Sequence record: MK903282.1
Direction: 5' to 3' (one strand)
Length of the DNA stretch: 64,000 nt
Source of the DNA: Escherichia phage Mansfield
The notes under the pieces were generated by a model that was given only the letters and a program-made list of their open reading frames with translations, ran no database searches and was not told the DNA's origin. Below are positions 3,694-13,752 of the stretch, one piece after another. Position 1 is the stretch's first letter. Each line of letters begins with the position of its first letter. Both the position numbers and the translations under genes were made by a program.

Positions 3694-4035
3694 TTAATTT
3701 CTTTTGAGAGGAATATGACGGTTGCTGTCATTATTTGGTTTAATAATGAGCATAAAAACGATTAGAAAGATGATGGCTGATATACTTAATTCAATCAGCG
3801 CGGCTTGAGATATGGATTGATCTTCATGATACTGCTTTTGCATTTCCGCTCTCTTTTGAGCGCAAACTTCAGGCGATATATAATCTCCTTTTGAGTTGCC
3901 ATAATAAATCTCGCCATTCTCAGAAATAAGCCTGCCGCAAATATCCGTATCGGCCTTTGCGCTTGACATCATAATAACGGTGCCGATGATAGCAGCAATT
4001 GTCCAAATTAGCAGTTGTGATAAAGTGTTGTTCAT
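3694..4035 (-). CDS. small membrane protein (N- and C-terminal hydrophobic segments)
   Basis: 113 aa; N-terminal signal/TM segment and C-terminal TM helix; directly downstream of the tail fiber gene. Confidence 0.45.
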   Translation of the reverse strand: MNNTLSQLLIWTIAAIIGTVIMMSSAKADTDICGRLISENGEIYYGNSKGDYISPEVCAQKRAEMQKQYHEDQSISQAALIELSISAIIFLIVFMLIIKPNNDSNRHIPLKRN

Positions 4036-4050
4036 AATAACCTCTTTAAA

Positions 4051-4078
4051 TTACCCTTCCCATGTCGGGAAGGGTGAA
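4051..4078 (-). terminator. stem-loop, possible terminator/attenuator
   Basis: Perfect inverted repeat CCCTTCCC-atgtc-GGGAAGGG; flanked by AT-rich sequence, U-tract weak. Confidence 0.25.
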
Positions 4079-4232
4079 TATTATTTTACGCGAAAGAATA
4101 AGCGCGTGCCACACAGCGAGTCCCAACGGCCCTCACCATCCCATATCGACCCAACACCAGCGGTGATTGGGCCAGCAGAATTGGCGGCATTGGCCCAGGC
4201 GAGTCGTTTCAGTTTCCAACTGCACCAACGAT

Positions 4233-4466
4233 TCACAGTTCACCTCCAGACTGCAAAACAAGTCCCGCATAGAGGATTGCTAGAGCTAAAGGCGCACCAC
4301 TTCCAGCCTCTCTATTCTCTTTGATTTGAAGAGTATCCTTAAGAAATTGCAACTGAACGTTGAATTCATTTTCAATTCCAAGCACTACAGATAATTCTTT
4401 TACAGAATCTGCATATGCCTTGTCTAGAACTTCTTTTGGTAATGTTAAAGTCAATTCACTTGCCAT
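4233..4466 (-). CDS. hypothetical protein
   Basis: ORF track 4233..4496; internal ATG at 4466 preceded by GGAG gives smaller overlap with the upstream gene. Confidence 0.35.
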   Translation of the reverse strand: MASELTLTLPKEVLDKAYADSVKELSVVLGIENEFNVQLQFLKDTLQIKENREAGSGAPLALAILYAGLVLQSGGEL

Positions 4467-4677
4467 TCTCTTTCCACTCCACAAATGTGCTGCCACTTGT
4501 TTCTCTATTTAGCAGGTATCTGCCGCGCATTCCATGAAGGCTGAATTCAACCGTCGATGGATTAGATTTTGAAAGCCACATGGCCTGACCGTCGAACGGT
4601 CCGCCAACGCATGTGTATTTAGCCTTTGGCTCACTCCTTTTGGGTCGCTTTGCCCGCTCTTTGATTGATAGTCTCAT
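4456..4677 (-). CDS. hypothetical protein
   Basis: 73-aa ORF, basic N-terminus; part of minus-strand gene string. Confidence 0.35.
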   Translation of the reverse strand: MRLSIKERAKRPKRSEPKAKYTCVGGPFDGQAMWLSKSNPSTVEFSLHGMRGRYLLNRETSGSTFVEWKENGK

Positions 4678-4892
4678 CAGTCTTCACCTTGAGATTCCAG
4701 ACAAGTAAGAACAAGCCACGTCATCGGAAGAATCAAAACCAGAGAAATAAGGGACCAGATGGACCAGCACAAGATGACAGACTTGAATGTGTGAACGTCG
4801 CCAAACACAGCAGTGAAACAAAATCCCATCACAAAAGCAAGCGTGGTGGAGTGGTTATCAATGGCTTTGATGGCGCGGTCGATGAGTTTCAT
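4677..4892 (-). CDS. small membrane protein (two predicted TM helices)
   Basis: 71 aa with two long hydrophobic segments (LAFVMGFCFTAVFG, ILCWSIWSLISLVLILPMTWLVL). Confidence 0.45.
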   Translation of the reverse strand: MKLIDRAIKAIDNHSTTLAFVMGFCFTAVFGDVHTFKSVILCWSIWSLISLVLILPMTWLVLTCLESQGED

Positions 4893-4981
4893 ATTACCTC
4901 CGGTTTTGAGTTAATATGATTATAACGCAGAGTTTCAGAAAGGCAAACTTTTTGTGAATTTATGCCGTCCATGGCAAATGA

Positions 4982-5212
4982 TTAGTGAGAAGACACGACT
5001 AATGTGCCGCTTCCTTTCGCGAAAATCTCAACACCTGGCGGGATTGTGACCGTGCCAACAACTGCGATGCCGATCAACTTGTCGTCTGCTTTTTCTTCGA
5101 AACAGATCTCTGCGGCACCGCCGCGAACTTGAATAAGTGCGCCTGATACGTTTTCAACAACAGAAAGAACGGAAGTGTAAGATGGAGTGAGTTGAATATT
5201 TACTAGGGCCAT
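4982..5212 (-). CDS. hypothetical protein
   Basis: 76-aa ORF; first gene of the minus-strand left-arm operon. Confidence 0.4.
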   Translation of the reverse strand: MALVNIQLTPSYTSVLSVVENVSGALIQVRGGAAEICFEEKADDKLIGIAVVGTVTIPPGVEIFAKGSGTLVVSSH

Positions 5213-5225
5213 GATTTACTCCTGA

Positions 5226-5253
5226 TAAAAAAATGGCCAGAAAGAATCTGGCC
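5226..5253 (-). terminator. hairpin plus U7 tract (terminator-like or 5' UTR attenuator) in the divergent intergenic region
   Basis: GGCCAG-aaagaat-CTGGCC followed on minus strand by UUUUUUU; lies between a candidate minus-strand promoter (TTGCTT-N17-TAAAAT, about 5296-5324) and the first minus-strand gene. Confidence 0.3.
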
Positions 5254-5330
5254 GAAAAGATCACCCTTTATCCACTACTAAGCTGGAATCACAATTTTAC
5301 TTGATATAGCTGTCTCAAGCAAACTATAAT

Positions 5331-6791
5331 ATGAATAAAATATTAACACATAATTGGAAAGTCATGTACCAGTTGAATCCTGCTTTAAGAGAAGTTTGGA
5401 AGACGAAAGCGCGATACAAAGTAATATACGGCGGTCGTGCATCTTCCAAATCGCATGATGCCGCTGGTTTTGCTATTTATTTGGCGGCAAACTTTAAATT
5501 AAAATTCCTTTGCGTTCGACAATTCCAGAACAAGATTTCTGAATCAGTATATACGCTATTAAAAGATAAGATAGAGATTTCTGATTTTAAAGACGAGTTC
5601 AACTTATTAAAGAACTCTATTGAACACAAAAGAACAAAATCTGAATTCTTATTTTACGGTATCGCACGCAACGTTGACGAAATCAAATCAACAGAAGGCG
5701 TTGATGTTCTTTGGCTTGAAGAAGCGCATGCACTGACTGAAGAACAATGGGACATTATTGAGCCGACCATTCGTAAGGAAGGGTCAGAAATATGGATCAT
5801 ATTTAACCCTGATGAAGAGGCCGATTTCGTCTACCAGAACTTTGTCATGCGACCGCCGAAGAATGCCATCGTTAAGAAGATCAACTGGCAAGACAACCCA
5901 TTTTTGTCACAAACAATGCTGGATGTTATTGCTGGCATGTATGAGCGCGACCCGAAAAAGGCAGAACACGTTTATGGCGGAGTACCGAAGACAGGCGGCG
6001 ACAAGTCGGTCATCAACCGTGCATTCGTCAAGGCCGCGCTAAACCTCCACAAACACCCTACGCTGGGATGGAGCTTGTCAGGGTCTAACCGTATAGGCTT
6101 TGACGTGGCGGACGACGGCGACGACTTAAACGCCACAGCATTTGTCACGGGCAACGTATTGCGCGGCATCAAGACATGGGAAGGTCTGGAAGATGAATTG
6201 CTTAAGTCCGCAAGCGGAGTTTGGAAAGACGCATTGACATTCGGCGCATCAATTACCTATGACGCAATCGGTGTTGGTGCATTTGCTGGTTCAAAATTTG
6301 ATGAGCTTAATGAGTATGCAATCCATGAAAATCCAACATTCCCAAGAATCGAATTTAATGCGTTCAACGCGCAAGGTGCTGTTGATGATCCTGATGATGT
6401 TTTCCTTGAGTTACCACACGTTGAAATACTCAATAAAGACCATTTCGCAAACATAAAAGCGCAAAAATGGACTGAGATTGCCGAACGATTCAGGAAGACA
6501 TATGAATATGCGACAGGGCAAGCCGTATATCCGACCGATGAGTTGATTTCCATCGACACAGACGGCATTCCAGAACTTGGGATTCCTGCTTGGTCTGCGG
6601 AAGAGATTGAGACGTTTCTTTTTGAGATGTCAGCGCCGCGCAAAGATACGTCTGTACTTGGCAAGTTCAAAGTTGAATCGAAAAAAGATATGGCAAAGCG
6701 TGGAGTCAAATCGCCTAACAAAGCGGACGCCGCAATCATGGCATTGATGAAACCAATTGTTGCAGCATCCGGCTTCTTCTCTAACCTTTAA
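5331..6791 (+). CDS. terminase large subunit
   Basis: 486 aa; N-terminal ATPase with Walker A-like YGGRASSKS and LWLEEAH; C-terminal nuclease-like acidic residues; position immediately upstream of portal. True start may be the downstream ATG at 5364. Confidence 0.85.
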   Translation: MNKILTHNWKVMYQLNPALREVWKTKARYKVIYGGRASSKSHDAAGFAIYLAANFKLKFLCVRQFQNKISESVYTLLKDKIEISDFKDEFNLLKNSIEHKRTKSEFLFYGIARNVDEIKSTEGVDVLWLEEAHALTEEQWDIIEPTIRKEGSEIWIIFNPDEEADFVYQNFVMRPPKNAIVKKINWQDNPFLSQTMLDVIAGMYERDPKKAEHVYGGVPKTGGDKSVINRAFVKAALNLHKHPTLGWSLSGSNRIGFDVADDGDDLNATAFVTGNVLRGIKTWEGLEDELLKSASGVWKDALTFGASITYDAIGVGAFAGSKFDELNEYAIHENPTFPRIEFNAFNAQGAVDDPDDVFLELPHVEILNKDHFANIKAQKWTEIAERFRKTYEYATGQAVYPTDELISIDTDGIPELGIPAWSAEEIETFLFEMSAPRKDTSVLGKFKVESKKDMAKRGVKSPNKADAAIMALMKPIVAASGFFSNL

Positions 6792-6794
6792 CAA

Positions 6795-7034
6795 CTAAAG
6801 CATTCCGTGCTGAAGGTCGAGTTTTCTTGCGGCAAATGACCTGGCACGGAATCGCTTACCCGCTCTTACTGCCTGTCGAATTTTCTTTTGCAAACACTTA
6901 CGGTCAAAATCGTTGCGGTCGACGGCTTCGAGTAAATCACGACGCAACGCACCCAGTGTCGACTTTTCGGAGACTTCAACGCCCAGCGCGGCTGCAACGT
7001 CTTTCAAAACATCGAGTTCGGTTAAAGTTCTCAT
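6795..7034 (-). CDS. hypothetical protein
   Basis: 79-aa ORF on the opposite strand between terminase and portal. Confidence 0.4.
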   Translation of the reverse strand: MRTLTELDVLKDVAAALGVEVSEKSTLGALRRDLLEAVDRNDFDRKCLQKKIRQAVRAGKRFRARSFAARKLDLQHGML

Positions 7035-7447
7035 TTGATAATCCCCTTGATGTCTGATTCTGCCATAAAGATTGGAGTGCCGCCGCCAGGAACAATCGAG
7101 CGCGTTACTTTGTCAAAAATATCGTTCTCTTCAACTTGAATACGATAAAATTTATTTTTGGATGAAGATGGGCACAATCCCATAAATTTGCCGATGCCGC
7201 GAACGCATTCATCTTCAAAGTATACTGTTTCACCTTGAATGGATTCGATGTTGTCTACTGGATAGACCTTGCGACCCAACAACCACTCATCTAAAGTCGC
7301 CTGCAAGACGTTTCGCGCATCTAAAATCCACGGGTCAATAGTAGCACCTTCGTATCGCGCAGCAGTAGCCTTTGCCAGTTCTTCATATTCGCATACGTTA
7401 ACGACTTCGCCGTTGTGCAAGACGACAAATACAATTGTTGTGCTCAT
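7031..7447 (-). CDS. hypothetical protein
   Basis: 138-aa ORF with AAAGGAG RBS; opposite strand between terminase and portal. Confidence 0.45.
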   Translation of the reverse strand: MSTTIVFVVLHNGEVVNVCEYEELAKATAARYEGATIDPWILDARNVLQATLDEWLLGRKVYPVDNIESIQGETVYFEDECVRGIGKFMGLCPSSSKNKFYRIQVEENDIFDKVTRSIVPGGGTPIFMAESDIKGIIK

Positions 7448-7571: not shown

Positions 7572-7609
7572 ATAGATTGATTCCCTTTCACTGTCAGGTG
7601 GCGTTAACA

Positions 7610-9985
7610 ATGAAAATTCTTGGCATAAAACTCTGGGAGAAGACGCAACCAGAAGCCGAACCAGCGGAGATGCCGCCAGGCGACCCATTGGCACCGTTTG
7701 AACGCCTTGAAAGGCGCGGCAGCGGTCAACGCTGGGAAAAGACTGAAAGCAATCGACCGACCTTTAAAACGGTTGATGACTTCCCTTTATATGAACCTGA
7801 TATTAATGGCGACGGTGTTGCTATCATAAAAGGTCGTTCAGTCGATTCCGCAACAGTATCCAAAAAGGTTATGGATAATGCCTTGAAGAACATCAGTTCA
7901 GAAGGGCAGGTCAACCCATACACAGTCCCTATTCAACTTCAAAACTGGTATTTGTCACAGTCATTCATCGGCTATCAAGCTTGTGCCATCATCGCACAGC
8001 ACTGGCTGGTGAACAAGGCGTGTTCCATGGTAGGCCGCGATGCGGTCCGTAAAGGCTGGGAAGTCAAATCCAGTTCTGAGTCAGAATTATCAGTGCAGGC
8101 CAGCGAACGCCTAAAGCAAATTGATAAAGAATTTAATATCAAAGAGCACTTAGTTGAAGCCGAACGATTCAAAAATATTTTTGGTATCCGCGTCATCATA
8201 TTTGATGTGCGTAGTGATGACCCAGAATACTACAGCAAACCTTTTAACATTGATGGTGTGACAAAGGGGTCTTATAAGGGAATCATTCAGGTTGACCCTT
8301 ATTGGATGATGCCATTTTTGACGTCTGAAAACACCGCCGACCCTGCATCACAGCACTTCTATGATCCAGAATACTGGGTGATCAGTGGACAACGTTATCA
8401 TCGAAGCCACCTGATCATTTTGCGCAACGATGAGCCAGCTGATATTCTCAAGCCGACTTATATTTACGGCGGCATTCCTTTGACTCAGCAGATTTATGAA
8501 CGCATCTATGCCGCTGAGCGTACCGCTAACGAAGCGCCATTGCTGGCGATGTCCAAGCGTACAACCACGCTGCGGACCGACGTTGACAAGGCGATTGCCA
8601 ATGAGAGGTCTTTTGCTGAACGTCTGATGATGTGGATTAAGTACCGCGACAACTATGCAGTCAAAGTGCTTGGTCAAAAAGAAGAGATGGACCAGTTCGA
8701 CATCAACTTGTCAGACTTCGATAGCATCATCATGAACCAGTACCAGCTGGTGGCTGCAATCGCAAAAGTTCCGTCAACCAAACTTCTTGGGACTTCGCCA
8801 AAAGGCTTTAACGCCACTGGTGAATTTGAGATGGTCAGCTATCACGAAGAGTTGGAAACTTGCCAGCAGCATGACCTGACAAAAATTCTCGACCGCCATT
8901 ACAAAATCCTTCTCAAATCAGAAGGGGTGGAAGTCGATGTTAAGGTCGCATGGGAACCAGTTGGCTCACTTACTGCTACTCAACTTGCAGAAATCAACGA
9001 CAAGCGAGCTAACACTGGCAAAACTCTTATTGATGCTGGCGTCATTTCTCCTGATGAAGAGCGCGACCGCATCAAAGACGACAAAAACAGCGGCTACAAC
9101 CGTCTGCCGGAAGACGCAGCAGAAGAAACCCCAGGGATGTCTCCAGAGAATATGGCATTGCTTGGCAAGTCTGCTGGTGAAGTCCTGCAAGGCAAGGCCG
9201 ATATTGAACAGGCGAAAGCTGATGTCGTTAAGATGGGCGGCCAGTTCTATAGCGAAACAGGTATTATGCCAGAAGGTGCCGCGCGTGGTGAGTTGGCGGA
9301 AAACCCTGACAAAGCGCCTGTCGAAATCAACATGGACGATACCGATGATGAATCAAGCCATCAGGTTGATGTCCTAACGCAGTTGAAAGAAGGTCTGGAG
9401 GGTATTGCTGATTATTACCTGAAAGAAGGTCAGGATGTGGATTTTGACCCTCAAAAAGATTCACGGTCGGTACAACCGTCTACCCTTCCAAGCGTCAAAG
9501 GTAATGTCGTTAACTTACGACACAACGTTGGAAAGATGGATGCAGCATCGTTACCTAAGATGAAGTTGCACGGGCTGATTCTTGGGATTGAGAATCCTCG
9601 CAACAGCATCCGTAGAGGGAACAGCCTTGACGGTGAATGGGCAGTCAAGATGCCGCATCACTACGGATTCATCAAGGGCACTAAGGGCGCGGACGGCGAT
9701 GAAGTCGACTGCTTTGTTGGTCCAAATATGAAGTCGCCGAAGGTCTTTATCGTTAACCAGAATGATAATTACTCTGGCGAGTTTGATGAACACAAGTGCA
9801 TGCTTGGATTCGATTCAGCAGAAGAAGCGAAAGAAGCTTATCAAGCATCATTTGGTAACGGGTGGAACGGATTTGACTCAATCCACGAATTGGATGTAAA
9901 CTCGTTCAAGGAGTGGTTGAAGGGTGATTGCTCTCAAGCATACGGAGCACTCAATAATCCTACTAATTCACCGAAGCAAGGTTGA
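7610..9985 (+). CDS. portal protein with C-terminal inorganic pyrophosphatase-like domain
   Basis: ORF track 7577 is a TTG start; ATG at 7610 has AGGTGG RBS 8 nt upstream. About 790 aa, immediately after terminase; acidic linker then C-terminal domain with HYGFIKGT...GADGDEVDCFVG matching family I pyrophosphatase signature. Confidence 0.7.
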   Translation: MKILGIKLWEKTQPEAEPAEMPPGDPLAPFERLERRGSGQRWEKTESNRPTFKTVDDFPLYEPDINGDGVAIIKGRSVDSATVSKKVMDNALKNISSEGQVNPYTVPIQLQNWYLSQSFIGYQACAIIAQHWLVNKACSMVGRDAVRKGWEVKSSSESELSVQASERLKQIDKEFNIKEHLVEAERFKNIFGIRVIIFDVRSDDPEYYSKPFNIDGVTKGSYKGIIQVDPYWMMPFLTSENTADPASQHFYDPEYWVISGQRYHRSHLIILRNDEPADILKPTYIYGGIPLTQQIYERIYAAERTANEAPLLAMSKRTTTLRTDVDKAIANERSFAERLMMWIKYRDNYAVKVLGQKEEMDQFDINLSDFDSIIMNQYQLVAAIAKVPSTKLLGTSPKGFNATGEFEMVSYHEELETCQQHDLTKILDRHYKILLKSEGVEVDVKVAWEPVGSLTATQLAEINDKRANTGKTLIDAGVISPDEERDRIKDDKNSGYNRLPEDAAEETPGMSPENMALLGKSAGEVLQGKADIEQAKADVVKMGGQFYSETGIMPEGAARGELAENPDKAPVEINMDDTDDESSHQVDVLTQLKEGLEGIADYYLKEGQDVDFDPQKDSRSVQPSTLPSVKGNVVNLRHNVGKMDAASLPKMKLHGLILGIENPRNSIRRGNSLDGEWAVKMPHHYGFIKGTKGADGDEVDCFVGPNMKSPKVFIVNQNDNYSGEFDEHKCMLGFDSAEEAKEAYQASFGNGWNGFDSIHELDVNSFKEWLKGDCSQAYGALNNPTNSPKQG

Positions 9986-9986
9986 T

Positions 9987-10838
9987 ATGGCTTTTAAAGC
10001 TTCGAAAAAACGTGAACGCCGCTCACCCGATAGAATCGGGCGCGGCAGTCCGATAATCCCGTCAAACGCTATTGCGATGGCCTACCGTCGTGAGATGAAA
10101 GGTCTTTGCTATGCGATGATTGATGACTATCAAGCAGGCATTTCAGAATGGCTTGATAAGAAGCAGGTGCAGAAGTTTTTTGCGCAAGACTCTGCTGATT
10201 CTACATTCCAGACTCTCATGAAACGGCTGCAGCTGAAATGGGCAAAGGCGTTTGCACGTGTTGGGTCGAAGATTGCCGCTGATTTTATCAAATCGGTCGA
10301 AAAGGGTGCCACTTCTGCTACATTCGCAAGCCTTAAGTCCGCAGGCATAGAAGCGCCAAAGGCCACATATAACAAATTCGTTGAGAACACTCTTAGAACA
10401 AGCGAGACGTTTAACACGACTCTAGTGACTAAGGTCGGCGAGGATATTCACAACAGAGTGTACGAAGCAGTCATGCTTTCGCTGACTTCGCCCGACCCAG
10501 CCCAGCAAGGAACGTCAGGCATTCAGGCGGCGTTGCGAAACGTAAAACACTTCTCTGCAAAGAGGGTCGACTTGATCGCTAAAGACCAGACAAGCAAATT
10601 GTATTGCGTTCTAAGCGATGAAAGGATGCGCCAGAATGGAGTCGAAGAATTTGAGTGGGCGCACTCAGGAGCAGGAAAGGAGCCGCGAATCTCTCATGAA
10701 CACGTCGACGGAATGAGATTCAAACTTGACGACAAGCGACTATGGGAAGTTGACGGCGAATTGAAGTTCAAAAAGGGTGACATCGGTCCTCCTGGATGGG
10801 CAATACACTGCAAGTGCAGAAAAATACCAATCATTTGA
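9987..10838 (+). CDS. head morphogenesis protein (Mu gpF / SPP1 gp7-like minor head protein)
   Basis: Position directly after portal; C-terminal conserved HEHVDG...GWAIHCKCRK region typical of MuF-like proteins; ATG at 9987 abuts portal stop. Confidence 0.65.
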   Translation: MAFKASKKRERRSPDRIGRGSPIIPSNAIAMAYRREMKGLCYAMIDDYQAGISEWLDKKQVQKFFAQDSADSTFQTLMKRLQLKWAKAFARVGSKIAADFIKSVEKGATSATFASLKSAGIEAPKATYNKFVENTLRTSETFNTTLVTKVGEDIHNRVYEAVMLSLTSPDPAQQGTSGIQAALRNVKHFSAKRVDLIAKDQTSKLYCVLSDERMRQNGVEEFEWAHSGAGKEPRISHEHVDGMRFKLDDKRLWEVDGELKFKKGDIGPPGWAIHCKCRKIPII

Positions 10839-12307: not shown

Positions 12308-12336
12308 ACACAATACTTATTTGAGGGTGGATGCGA

Positions 12337-13752
12337 ATGCAAACGGCACGCGAAATTGACAAAAATGGATTCTTGACGATTGTGGGTTGTCCCATTTCGT
12401 CATTTGGCATTTTTGATTATTCTGCAGGTCAGGTTGGACTTGATGGTGATCCGAATCGCATCGTAAAAGTTTATCGCCCAGAGTCAGCGGTGAAAGACCC
12501 CGAAGCGATAGATTCATTCAAAAATATCCCTTTCATCGACAATCACGAAATGCTTTCTGGATTCGAAGGTGATGAGGATAACACAGCACCCGAAGAGTAT
12601 GGCGTTGATGGAGTTCTAACTGGCAATGTTTATTATGACAAGCCATGGATGCGCGGCGACCTTAAAGTGTTTAGCCGTCGTCTGAAGAAGGCCATCGACT
12701 CTGGAAAGGTTGACTTGTCTTTGGGCTATGACTGTGAATTCATCATACAGTCTGGAGAGTTTGACGGGCAGCCGTATGAAGTGGTGCAGACAACTCTTCG
12801 CGGCAACCACATTGCTCTCGTGGACGTTGGTCGAGTACCAGGTGCACGGGTGCTGGATGGTCGTTGCTTTGACCATCTTTGTTTGACGACTGTAACACCA
12901 TCCAACGAGGATTTAGACATGCCAAAACCGTTAAAAGGTAAAGCGCGTGATAACGCTGTTGAACAGCTGAAATCACTGATCCCTGCGCTCGAACAATTTC
13001 TGAATGAAGAGAGCACCGAAGCTGCTCATCAGGACGAAGTTGAAGTGAAAGCAGAAGAGAAGGATTCAACCGAAGAACGTGAAGAAGTGATGGTTGATCC
13101 AGAAGTCAAAGCAGAAGCTGAAGAGACTCCAGAAGGTGAAGAGAAGTTTGAAGTTGAAACTGAATCTCACGCTGGCGGCGAGCTTCCGCAACTGATCAGC
13201 CAAATCGAAGCACTTATTGCAAAACTGAAAGGTGGCGCGGTAGGTGATGAAGAAGAAGTTGAAGCCGAAGTCAAAGACGAAGAAGAAGTTGAAGTCAAGG
13301 CTGAAGATGTATCACCTTGCGACAAAGCTGAAGATGTGGTTAGCGGCCTGCAAAACAGCAACGTAAAGGGGGCTTCGGTCGAAAAAGATGACAAACCGAC
13401 AAAAGCGGCGAAAGCGTCGCCAGGTCCAGCAAAAGGGGAACACTCAATGGCATCTGATTCAGCAGTTGCTGCTTTCTACGCTGATTCTGCTCGTAAGAAT
13501 AGCCTCTACCAGCGCCTGTCTAAAGTTGTTGGTGCCTTTGATCATGCAACTATGGACTCCAAGTCCGTAGCGAAATATGGCGCTAAAAAGTTAGGCTTGA
13601 AGTGCGTTGATGGCGCTGAGTTTGACGTTGTGGATAACTATCTGCGCGGCGTTGAACACGGTCAAAAACAGCGTGTAGTCGCAAAACAAAAGGCCGCTGC
13701 GGATTCTGCAGCAACTGACGAAGCATTTGAAGCTTGGTTGAAAGGGGAATAA
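12337..13752 (+). CDS. capsid scaffolding protein (acidic, coiled-coil; N-terminal globular domain of unknown function, possibly protease-like)
   Basis: Glu/Val/Lys-rich low-complexity middle (EVEVKAEEKD..., DEEEVEAEVKDEEEVEVKAED), located between head morphogenesis gene and capsid gene; ATG 12337 better spaced from GAGGGTGG than 12331. Confidence 0.5.
   Translation: MQTAREIDKNGFLTIVGCPISSFGIFDYSAGQVGLDGDPNRIVKVYRPESAVKDPEAIDSFKNIPFIDNHEMLSGFEGDEDNTAPEEYGVDGVLTGNVYYDKPWMRGDLKVFSRRLKKAIDSGKVDLSLGYDCEFIIQSGEFDGQPYEVVQTTLRGNHIALVDVGRVPGARVLDGRCFDHLCLTTVTPSNEDLDMPKPLKGKARDNAVEQLKSLIPALEQFLNEESTEAAHQDEVEVKAEEKDSTEEREEVMVDPEVKAEAEETPEGEEKFEVETESHAGGELPQLISQIEALIAKLKGGAVGDEEEVEAEVKDEEEVEVKAEDVSPCDKAEDVVSGLQNSNVKGASVEKDDKPTKAAKASPGPAKGEHSMASDSAVAAFYADSARKNSLYQRLSKVVGAFDHATMDSKSVAKYGAKKLGLKCVDGAEFDVVDNYLRGVEHGQKQRVVAKQKAAADSAATDEAFEAWLKGE

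Follow-up and report, generated by a model that had tools for sequence, protein, structure and literature searches.

What does an inorganic pyrophosphatase (PPase)-like domain do at the end of a phage portal protein? The portal gene of Escherichia phage Mansfield (sequence record MK903282.1) raises this question. In the 64,000-nucleotide (nt) stretch that we analysed, hereafter the window, an initial annotation described the last part of this gene as a PPase-like domain with a DxDxxD motif, joined to the portal by an acidic linker. Profile matching, alignment to the Escherichia coli PPase (Ppa) and conservation across the family all bear this description out. The domain belongs to the InPase family, and we put the probability at roughly 60% that it is a catalytically active hydrolase carried in the phage head on the portal. 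The gene is organized as follows (aa, amino acids; ORF, open reading frame; CDS, coding sequence):

7610 to 9985, + strand: portal gene, 791 aa and a stop codon (ORF list; 2376-nt CDS of phage WFH; PHROG 4660; PDB 9b41)
7928 to 9223, + strand: portal region matching the resolved E217 portal, including the C-terminal helical barrel, aa 107-538 (8fvh_O alignment)
7973 to 9013, + strand: Pfam Phage_portal_3 (PF06381) core, aa 122-468 (E-value 4e-88)
9224 to 9544, + strand: acidic, weakly conserved linker, aa 539-645 (six-portal alignment; composition)
9554 to 9922, + strand: InPase domain (Pfam PF18823) with a divergent family-I-pyrophosphatase fold, aa 649-771 (Pfam)

The InPase-like region occupies the final fifth of this single + strand gene. 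The mechanical ORF (7577 to 9985, + strand) opens on a TTG 33 nt 5′ of ATG 7610; the ATG, which is the start in the WFH/RefSeq annotation with its 2376-nt CDS, is the likely start and gives 791 aa. The stop codon is TGA 9983-9985, and the next gene, which is MuF-like, runs from 9987. Relatives label the orthologous gene 'minor head protein' or 'portal protein'. Structures of two relatives cover the portal part: 8fvh_O (433 aa, modelled residues 97-528) aligned with portal aa 107-538, and Pa193 gp19 (PDB 9b41, 765 aa) aligned with aa 14-779 at an E-value of 2e-250, compared with 4e-189 for E217 gp19.

The InPase profile was matched at 157.4 bits against a gathering cut-off of 26.8 (E-value 2.4e-46; profile positions 12-135 of 135), well outside anything expected by chance. 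Relative to the classical family I PPases (E. coli Ppa; PF00719; PS00387), identity was ~15-20% and the Mansfield domain stayed under the PF00719 gathering score; in the converse test, E. coli Ppa scored 13.9 bits on the InPase profile. The phage domain is also ~45 residues shorter than Ppa, with 24 residues instead of 35 (11 fewer) between the equivalents of Ppa E20 and Y55. The motif DGDEVDC (aa 695-701, window 9692-9712), previously noted as fitting the family I signature, was the sole match to the PROSITE pattern PS00387, D-[SGDN]-D-[PE]-[LIVMF]-D-[LIVMGAC], in six frames of the 64-kb window. It lies within HYGFIKGTKGADGDEVDCFVG (aa 684-704 of the portal protein, window 9659-9721), a block that phmmer aligned to the PPases of H. 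pylori and M. leprae. When the InPase family was compared with E. coli Ppa by hhalign, using a Ppa sequence identical to PDB 4um4, the probability was 89-91%, and the alignment was confident only over WxxxMxxxYGxIxGTxGxDGDxVD. Judged by these sequence comparisons, InPase is a compact, divergent sister family of the family I soluble PPases, not a classical PPase.

We modelled aa 616-791 with AlphaFold2 (176 aa, 27 sequences; adding 615 to a model residue gives the full-length number). The mean predicted local distance difference test (pLDDT) score was 82, and the core blocks reached ~84-98. A Foldseek search of the PDB, the structural check that the initial annotation had suggested, returned family I inorganic pyrophosphatases for all of the top 50 matches (E-values from 2.4e-4, template modelling (TM) scores 0.39-0.46). 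The top match in BFVD was 'Portal protein [Serratia phage MTx]', and several further matches there were phage proteins titled 'Inorganic pyrophosphatase domain-containing protein'. The C-terminal domain is thus predicted to contain the family I PPase fold. Iyer et al. 2017 (PMC5512222; Iyer, Burroughs, Anand, de Souza and Aravind) defined InPase as a type I PPase-like OB-fold without a β-hairpin, namely the one that classical PPases hold between core strands one and two. The spacing of 24 residues in place of 35 is consistent with such a deletion, although our model still has a short hairpin at model residues 52-65.

Could the fusion be a sequencing or assembly frameshift that unites the portal with a separate downstream gene, as the initial annotation had cautioned? 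By megablast, the 2376-nt gene was uninterrupted in 28 phage records at 92-97% nt identity. All of these are Wifcevirus or unclassified E. coli/Shigella myoviruses (kaset, WFH, WFC, ECML-117, FEC19, Bas98-100), so that, on sequence similarity, the phage is a Wifcevirus and the window most of a Wifcevirus genome; it is 97% identical to Escherichia phage kaset, in which the last 152 portal aa are 100% identical. The fusion was also unbroken in PB1 (Pbunavirus), Serratia phage Spe5P4, Burkholderia phage Karil-Mokiny-1 and Xanthomonas phage Carpasina, with portals 49-53% identical. The PDB-deposited 765-aa Pa193 portal carries it as well, and was matched by the C-terminal domain alone at an E-value of 1.9e-50. 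PHROG 4660 ('minor head protein') covered aa 16-777 over nearly its entire profile, which makes the portal-InPase fusion itself a protein family. Synonymous changes predominated across the junction: in comparisons with WFH and Bas100, the ratio of non-synonymous to synonymous substitution rates (dN/dS) was 0.011-0.015 in the InPase domain (31 synonymous and 2 non-synonymous changes relative to Bas100), 0.016-0.017 in the linker and 0.006-0.007 in the portal core. The InPase domain is under strong purifying selection and is kept as protein. With the frame continuous in 28 independently sequenced close relatives, in more than 300 distant ones and in the Pa193 PDB sequence, we rejected the frameshift explanation, which has next to no chance of being correct; the InPase domain is almost certainly truly fused to the portal.

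Signals for a separate InPase product from the in-frame ATG 9536 were limited to a weak GGA spaced too near the start, and no promoter-like site exceeded shuffled expectation. NCBIfam gave no curated name, only a sub-threshold HI1409 portal-like match and a sub-threshold PPase match.

The candidate active-site residues fall in the following blocks of the domain:

9590 to 9613, + strand: E661 and R668 (IENPRNSIR), proposed counterparts of Ppa E20/K29 (conservation; low-confidence hhalign extension)
9659 to 9721, + strand: HYGFIKGTKGADGDEVDCFVG, with Y685/D695/D697/D700 corresponding to Ppa Y55/D65/D67/D70 (hhalign, phmmer, conservation)
9782 to 9796, + strand: FDEHK, with D726/E727/K729 as proposed counterparts of Ppa E101/D102/K104 (conservation; secondary-structure order in the AlphaFold2 model)

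We audited conservation in an alignment of 191 InPase domains drawn from 177 proteins (176-aa model numbering in brackets). Y685 (Y70) was conserved in 99% of the domains, D700 (D85), D726 (D111) and E727 (E112) in 98%, D695 (D80) and K729 (K114) in 97%, E661 (E46) and R668 (R53) in 96%, Q102 of the 176-aa numbering in 94% and Y744 (Y129) in 92%; the position of D697 (D82) held D in 79% and E in 18%. The metal-site acidic positions E661, D695, D697, D700, D726 and E727 were 96-98% acidic, and every audited conserved residue is present in the Mansfield portal protein.

From the Ppa active-site set that we tested (E20, K29, E31, R43, Y55, D65, D67, D70, D97, D102, K104, Y141 and K142), counterparts were present for E20, K29 (as R), Y55, D65, D67, D70, D102 (as E) and K104, and Y744 is probably the counterpart of Y141. 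We infer the equivalence of E661 with Ppa E20 and of R668 with K29 from the likeness of IENP...IR to IEIP...IK. Similarly, FDEHK would correspond to (E)DAK, with E727 as Ppa D102 and K729 as K104. The initial annotation had already set EFDEHK beside GEDAK, and the order of secondary-structure elements agrees: FDEHK opens the second strand of a β-hairpin, and model strands 96-103/110-117 mirror the Ppa hairpin 84-96/101-109. hhalign paired FDEHK with Ppa YDHIK (117-121) instead, at the near-zero confidence that this alignment has outside Y55-D70; we rejected that pairing on topology and preferred EDAK 101-104. A second proposed likeness, of EAKEAYQASF to AAKAEIVASF, is probably coincidental, as the phage segment forms the first helix after the β-hairpin and is equivalent to helix A of Ppa, while AAKAEIVASF belongs to helix B.

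Where in the particle would this domain be? The cryo-electron microscopy (cryo-EM) structures of E217 (8fvh) and Pa193 (9b41) model portal residues 97-528 and 94-528 of 765, respectively. The barrel projects into the head, residues 529-765 (~237 residues) have no density, and neither paper mentions a pyrophosphatase-like domain anywhere. The unmodelled residues correspond to positions 9224-9982 of the Mansfield window. From the head-directed barrel of E217/Pa193 and the lack of density for residues 529-765, we reasoned by homology that aa 539-791 (linker and InPase) most likely lie inside the capsid past the barrel, flexibly tethered and in twelve copies per virion, and that InPase is quite probably inside the capsid of the mature virion. 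The initial annotation had envisaged twelve domains at the portal vertex; the copy number stands, while a position on the vertex exterior gives way to a capsid-internal one past the barrel. When LiCl ghost particles of Pbunavirus SCUT-S1 were analysed by proteomics, 44 peptides of the 84.5-kDa orthologue were identified, covering 59% of it. As portal residues 94-528 by themselves could account for at most 57% of the protein, this indirectly suggests that some C-terminal part is probably in the particle.

The linker is acidic, as first described: D and E make up 20% of aa 539-645, compared with 16% of the entire protein, and it includes MDDTDDESS. When six portals of five genera were aligned, the stretch running from PGMSPEN (aa 508-514) to InPase was poorly conserved and rich in indels. 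Inside this variable stretch we observed an amphipathic helix-like motif, VDVLTQLKEGLEGIADYY (aa 586-603, window 9365-9418), whose leucines L589, L592 and L596 are invariant in five phage genera; the motif may serve for docking or as a helix element.

We also followed the domain beyond its own lineage. A tblastn search found it in 474 phage records, 294 of them from Pseudomonas, 70 from Vibrio and 26 from Escherichia, the other hosts including Serratia, Nodularia, Xanthomonas, Leptospira, Burkholderia and Cellulophaga. When 1.84 billion representative proteins were searched exhaustively with the profile, 12,216 clusters came back, 8,871 of them at an E-value of 1e-30 or better, and the majority of the top matches were proteins of 1,000-6,650 aa; PHROGs matched by the C-terminal domain alone likewise include those of DarB-like and of very large virion-associated proteins. 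A word-indexed search with the domain alone recovered no portal fusions, its 29 matches all being short metagenomic proteins, so the size of the family is visible only by exhaustive profile search.

The fusion partners of InPase are diverse. The architecture of a PF06381 portal with InPase is that of the Mansfield lineage, of the Pbunavirus phages PB1, E217 and Pa193, and of Serratia, Burkholderia and Xanthomonas phages. In P0126, a metagenomic representative of 742 aa, a C-terminal InPase follows an HK97-type portal (PF04860), which indicates that portal-InPase fusions arose in at least two portal families independently. In Cellulophaga phage phiST gp026 (3908-5980; 690 aa, titled 'putative tail protein'), InPase spans aa 21-155 and a Clp protease domain aa 209-347; by its domain content, gp026 is InPase fused to a prohead-protease-type carrier. 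Further architectures join InPase to ART-PolyVal, to a tail lysozyme or, in a Nodularia phage, to Hva1_TUDOR. A polyvalent protein of Achromobacter phage CF418P1 (~2,684 aa by its annotated CDS coordinates) has InPase with LPD3, and solo InPase proteins of ~190 aa occur, as in Vibrio phage YC. Some InPase proteins (P0030, P0031, which is merely 320 aa long, and several others) contained two matched stretches, which suggests tandem InPase domains in them.

Fusions of InPase to a portal domain (BcepF1.124) were described by Iyer et al. 2017 (PMC5512222), who proposed that InPase is injected into the host and acts on an infection-induced nucleotide-like molecule, or else clears inorganic pyrophosphate (PPi). 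The architecture has thus been known since 2017 and is found in hundreds of sequenced phages, and our observation is a rediscovery and not a new system. The early remark that this is not a standard portal architecture does not survive for the Pbunavirus/Wifcevirus lineage, in which it is normal.

How might such a domain work? We propose that InPase would be a portal-anchored, capsid-internal, metal-dependent phosphoanhydride hydrolase that is pre-made and carried in the particle. E661, D695, D697, D700 and D726/E727 would bind catalytic Mg2+ and activate water, and are kept together with Y685, R668 and K729. Placed beyond the C-terminal helical barrel, at the end of a ~105-residue linker that is acidic and flexible, twelve copies would be tethered within the capsid around the packaged-DNA end. 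If the linker were cut and the domain left with the DNA, a hydrolase would be on hand at the onset of infection; if the linker were not cut, the hydrolase would act at the portal or within the capsid. Its substrate would be PPi or a pyrophosphate-containing nucleotide-like molecule. Catalytic activity of the domain is probable, and is favoured because the six acidic residues and the Y, R and K are near-universal across very different protein contexts. Packaging appears to matter because InPase has been fused, independently and repeatedly, to different head-internal carriers: the ClpP-type prohead protease of phiST, the HK97-type portal of P0126 and giant polyvalent proteins with ART and lysozyme domains. 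That InPase acts in the newly infected cell is, in our estimate, less likely than not. Narrower still, and in our view unlikely, is the idea that it hydrolyses a pyrophosphate nucleotide of the host response to infection (an immune second messenger, an alarmone, or a signal derived from nicotinamide adenine dinucleotide (NAD) or ADP-ribose) instead of PPi, once severed from the portal and ejected together with the DNA.

Several observations weigh against an active, particle-borne hydrolase. The portal remains with the capsid after ejection, and a tethered domain reaches the host only if it is cleaved. If the SCUT-S1 data indicate anything here, it is that the ghost particle retains the C-terminal part, and the capsid-internal placement is derived from homologues whose own domain was invisible. 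The classical PF00719 profile scored only 18.3-20.6 bits, under its threshold of 23.5, and over just 26 residues around DGDEVD. In the 191-domain alignment we found no conserved counterparts of Ppa E31 (G), R43, D97 and K142 (Q here, mostly L), so the substrate may be something other than free PPi, or the activity may be low; two of the four PPi-clamping basic residues are not evidently retained, which is compatible with a different leaving group. In the literature on phage InPase and portal pyrophosphatases, we found nothing beyond the 2017 description, and no biochemical or genetic experiment on any InPase domain.

The same evidence bears on what else the domain might be. A true PPase could work in the cytoplasm of the producing cell, clearing PPi from fast phage DNA and RNA synthesis, with the portal fusion a means of expression and encapsidation incidental. 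The PPase fold and signature would suit this role, Wifcevirus phages are reported as unusually fast replicators, and Iyer et al. 2017 (PMC5512222) listed it as an alternative. We consider it improbable, because repeated fusion to portals of two unrelated families, to a prohead protease and to polyvalent proteins points to packaging as the selected feature; moreover, E. coli has plentiful Ppa of its own, the portal is a late protein that appears once most nucleic-acid synthesis has begun, and the PPi-clamping R43 and K142 are without conserved counterparts. The missing classical residues would suit a non-enzymatic internal head or assembly element, one that binds Mg2+ or the DNA end, helps portal incorporation, or forms a plug or spacer over the barrel, and such a role would also accord with a domain tethered at the portal crown beside the DNA and apparently retained by ghost particles. 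However, conservation of 92-99% for the six acidic residues and the Y, R and K in 191 diverse domains is typical of catalysis and extends to solo and polyvalent proteins that have no portal, and we think a purely structural role slightly less credible again than PPi clearance.

Lastly, the DUF2213 head maturation protease might cut the linker, leaving the domain discarded or confined to the procapsid and absent from mature virions. Neither cryo-EM structure shows residues 529-765, the prohead protease gene lies 2.3 kb downstream, and the N-terminal 93 portal residues of Pa193 were undetected in LC-MS (liquid chromatography-mass spectrometry), so that the protein may be processed. Yet these N-terminal residues are the only ones that the Pa193 authors list as undetected, the 59% coverage in SCUT-S1 tops the 57% possible without the N- and C-terminal parts, and C12 averaging is expected to hide flexibly tethered domains; loss during maturation is, to us, the least convincing of these proposals. 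Cytoplasmic PPi clearance, a structural role and removal during maturation all suit the conservation and architecture data less well than a catalytically active hydrolase carried in the head on the portal.

The closest known systems are the gp19 portals of Pa193 (9b41) and E217 (8fvh), which are full-length orthologues of the Mansfield portal (53% identity to the PB1 portal). They share with it a portal core with a C-terminal barrel, the linker and InPase, as well as the terminase, MuF, protease and major capsid protein genes around the portal gene, and differ in host genus and in the sequence and length of the linker. The InPase of polyvalent proteins (BcepF1.124; Iyer et al. 2017) belongs to the same family, includes the portal-InPase class and led to the same suggestion of packaging in the virion; relative to that set, Mansfield adds a new host and genus, being a Wifcevirus of E. 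coli, and its protein is a simple two-module one, not a multi-effector. Ppa, by comparison, is a free hexamer, whereas the Mansfield domain is tethered to a virion protein. The 2H phosphoesterases, PBECR RNases and MuF toxins on portal or MuF proteins are similar C-terminal enzyme appendages presumed to travel in the capsid; they differ from InPase in fold and chemistry, and delivery is presumed for all of them, InPase included. The 2H family includes the anti-CBASS enzyme Acb1, and by analogy InPase might reasonably be pictured as degrading a nucleotide signal.

The portal gene lies in a head module with these neighbours:

5331 to 6791, + strand: terminase large subunit (Pfam Terminase_3, E-value 3e-37; WFH annotation)
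9987 to 10838, + strand: MuF/SPP1 gp7-like head morphogenesis protein, directly downstream of the portal gene (Pfam Phage_Mu_F, E-value 6e-07; WFH annotation)
12331 to 13752, + strand: head maturation protease, DUF2213 (Pfam, E-value 4e-35; so annotated in WFH, PB1 and Carpasina)

The order of the head-module genes is common to WFH, PB1, Carpasina, Spe5P4 and Karil-Mokiny-1. The DUF2213 protease is the candidate enzyme for portal processing, if any occurs. Its C-terminal extension (aa ~200-340) is long, E/K-rich and extremely acidic, much as in a protease-scaffold fusion. Between terminase and portal, window positions 6795-7447 on the − strand hold two small ORFs of 79 and 138 aa, opposite to the head genes and equivalent to the hypothetical proteins gp019 and gp020 of WFH; upstream of their portals, PB1 and Spe5P4 also carry small hypothetical genes on the opposite strand. 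These ORFs are an unusual break in the packaging module.

A useful by-product of this work is that a prediction made in 2017 is now tied to a part of the E217 and Pa193 portals, their C-terminal third, that went unmodelled. Were the domain active, each Pbunavirus or Wifcevirus particle would carry twelve copies of an enzyme, and Pbunavirus phages are widely used in therapy. Were its substrate indeed a nucleotide of the host response, InPase would be a counter-defence enzyme delivered by the virion, at twelve copies per capsid, in therapeutic Pbunavirus phages as well as in Wifcevirus.

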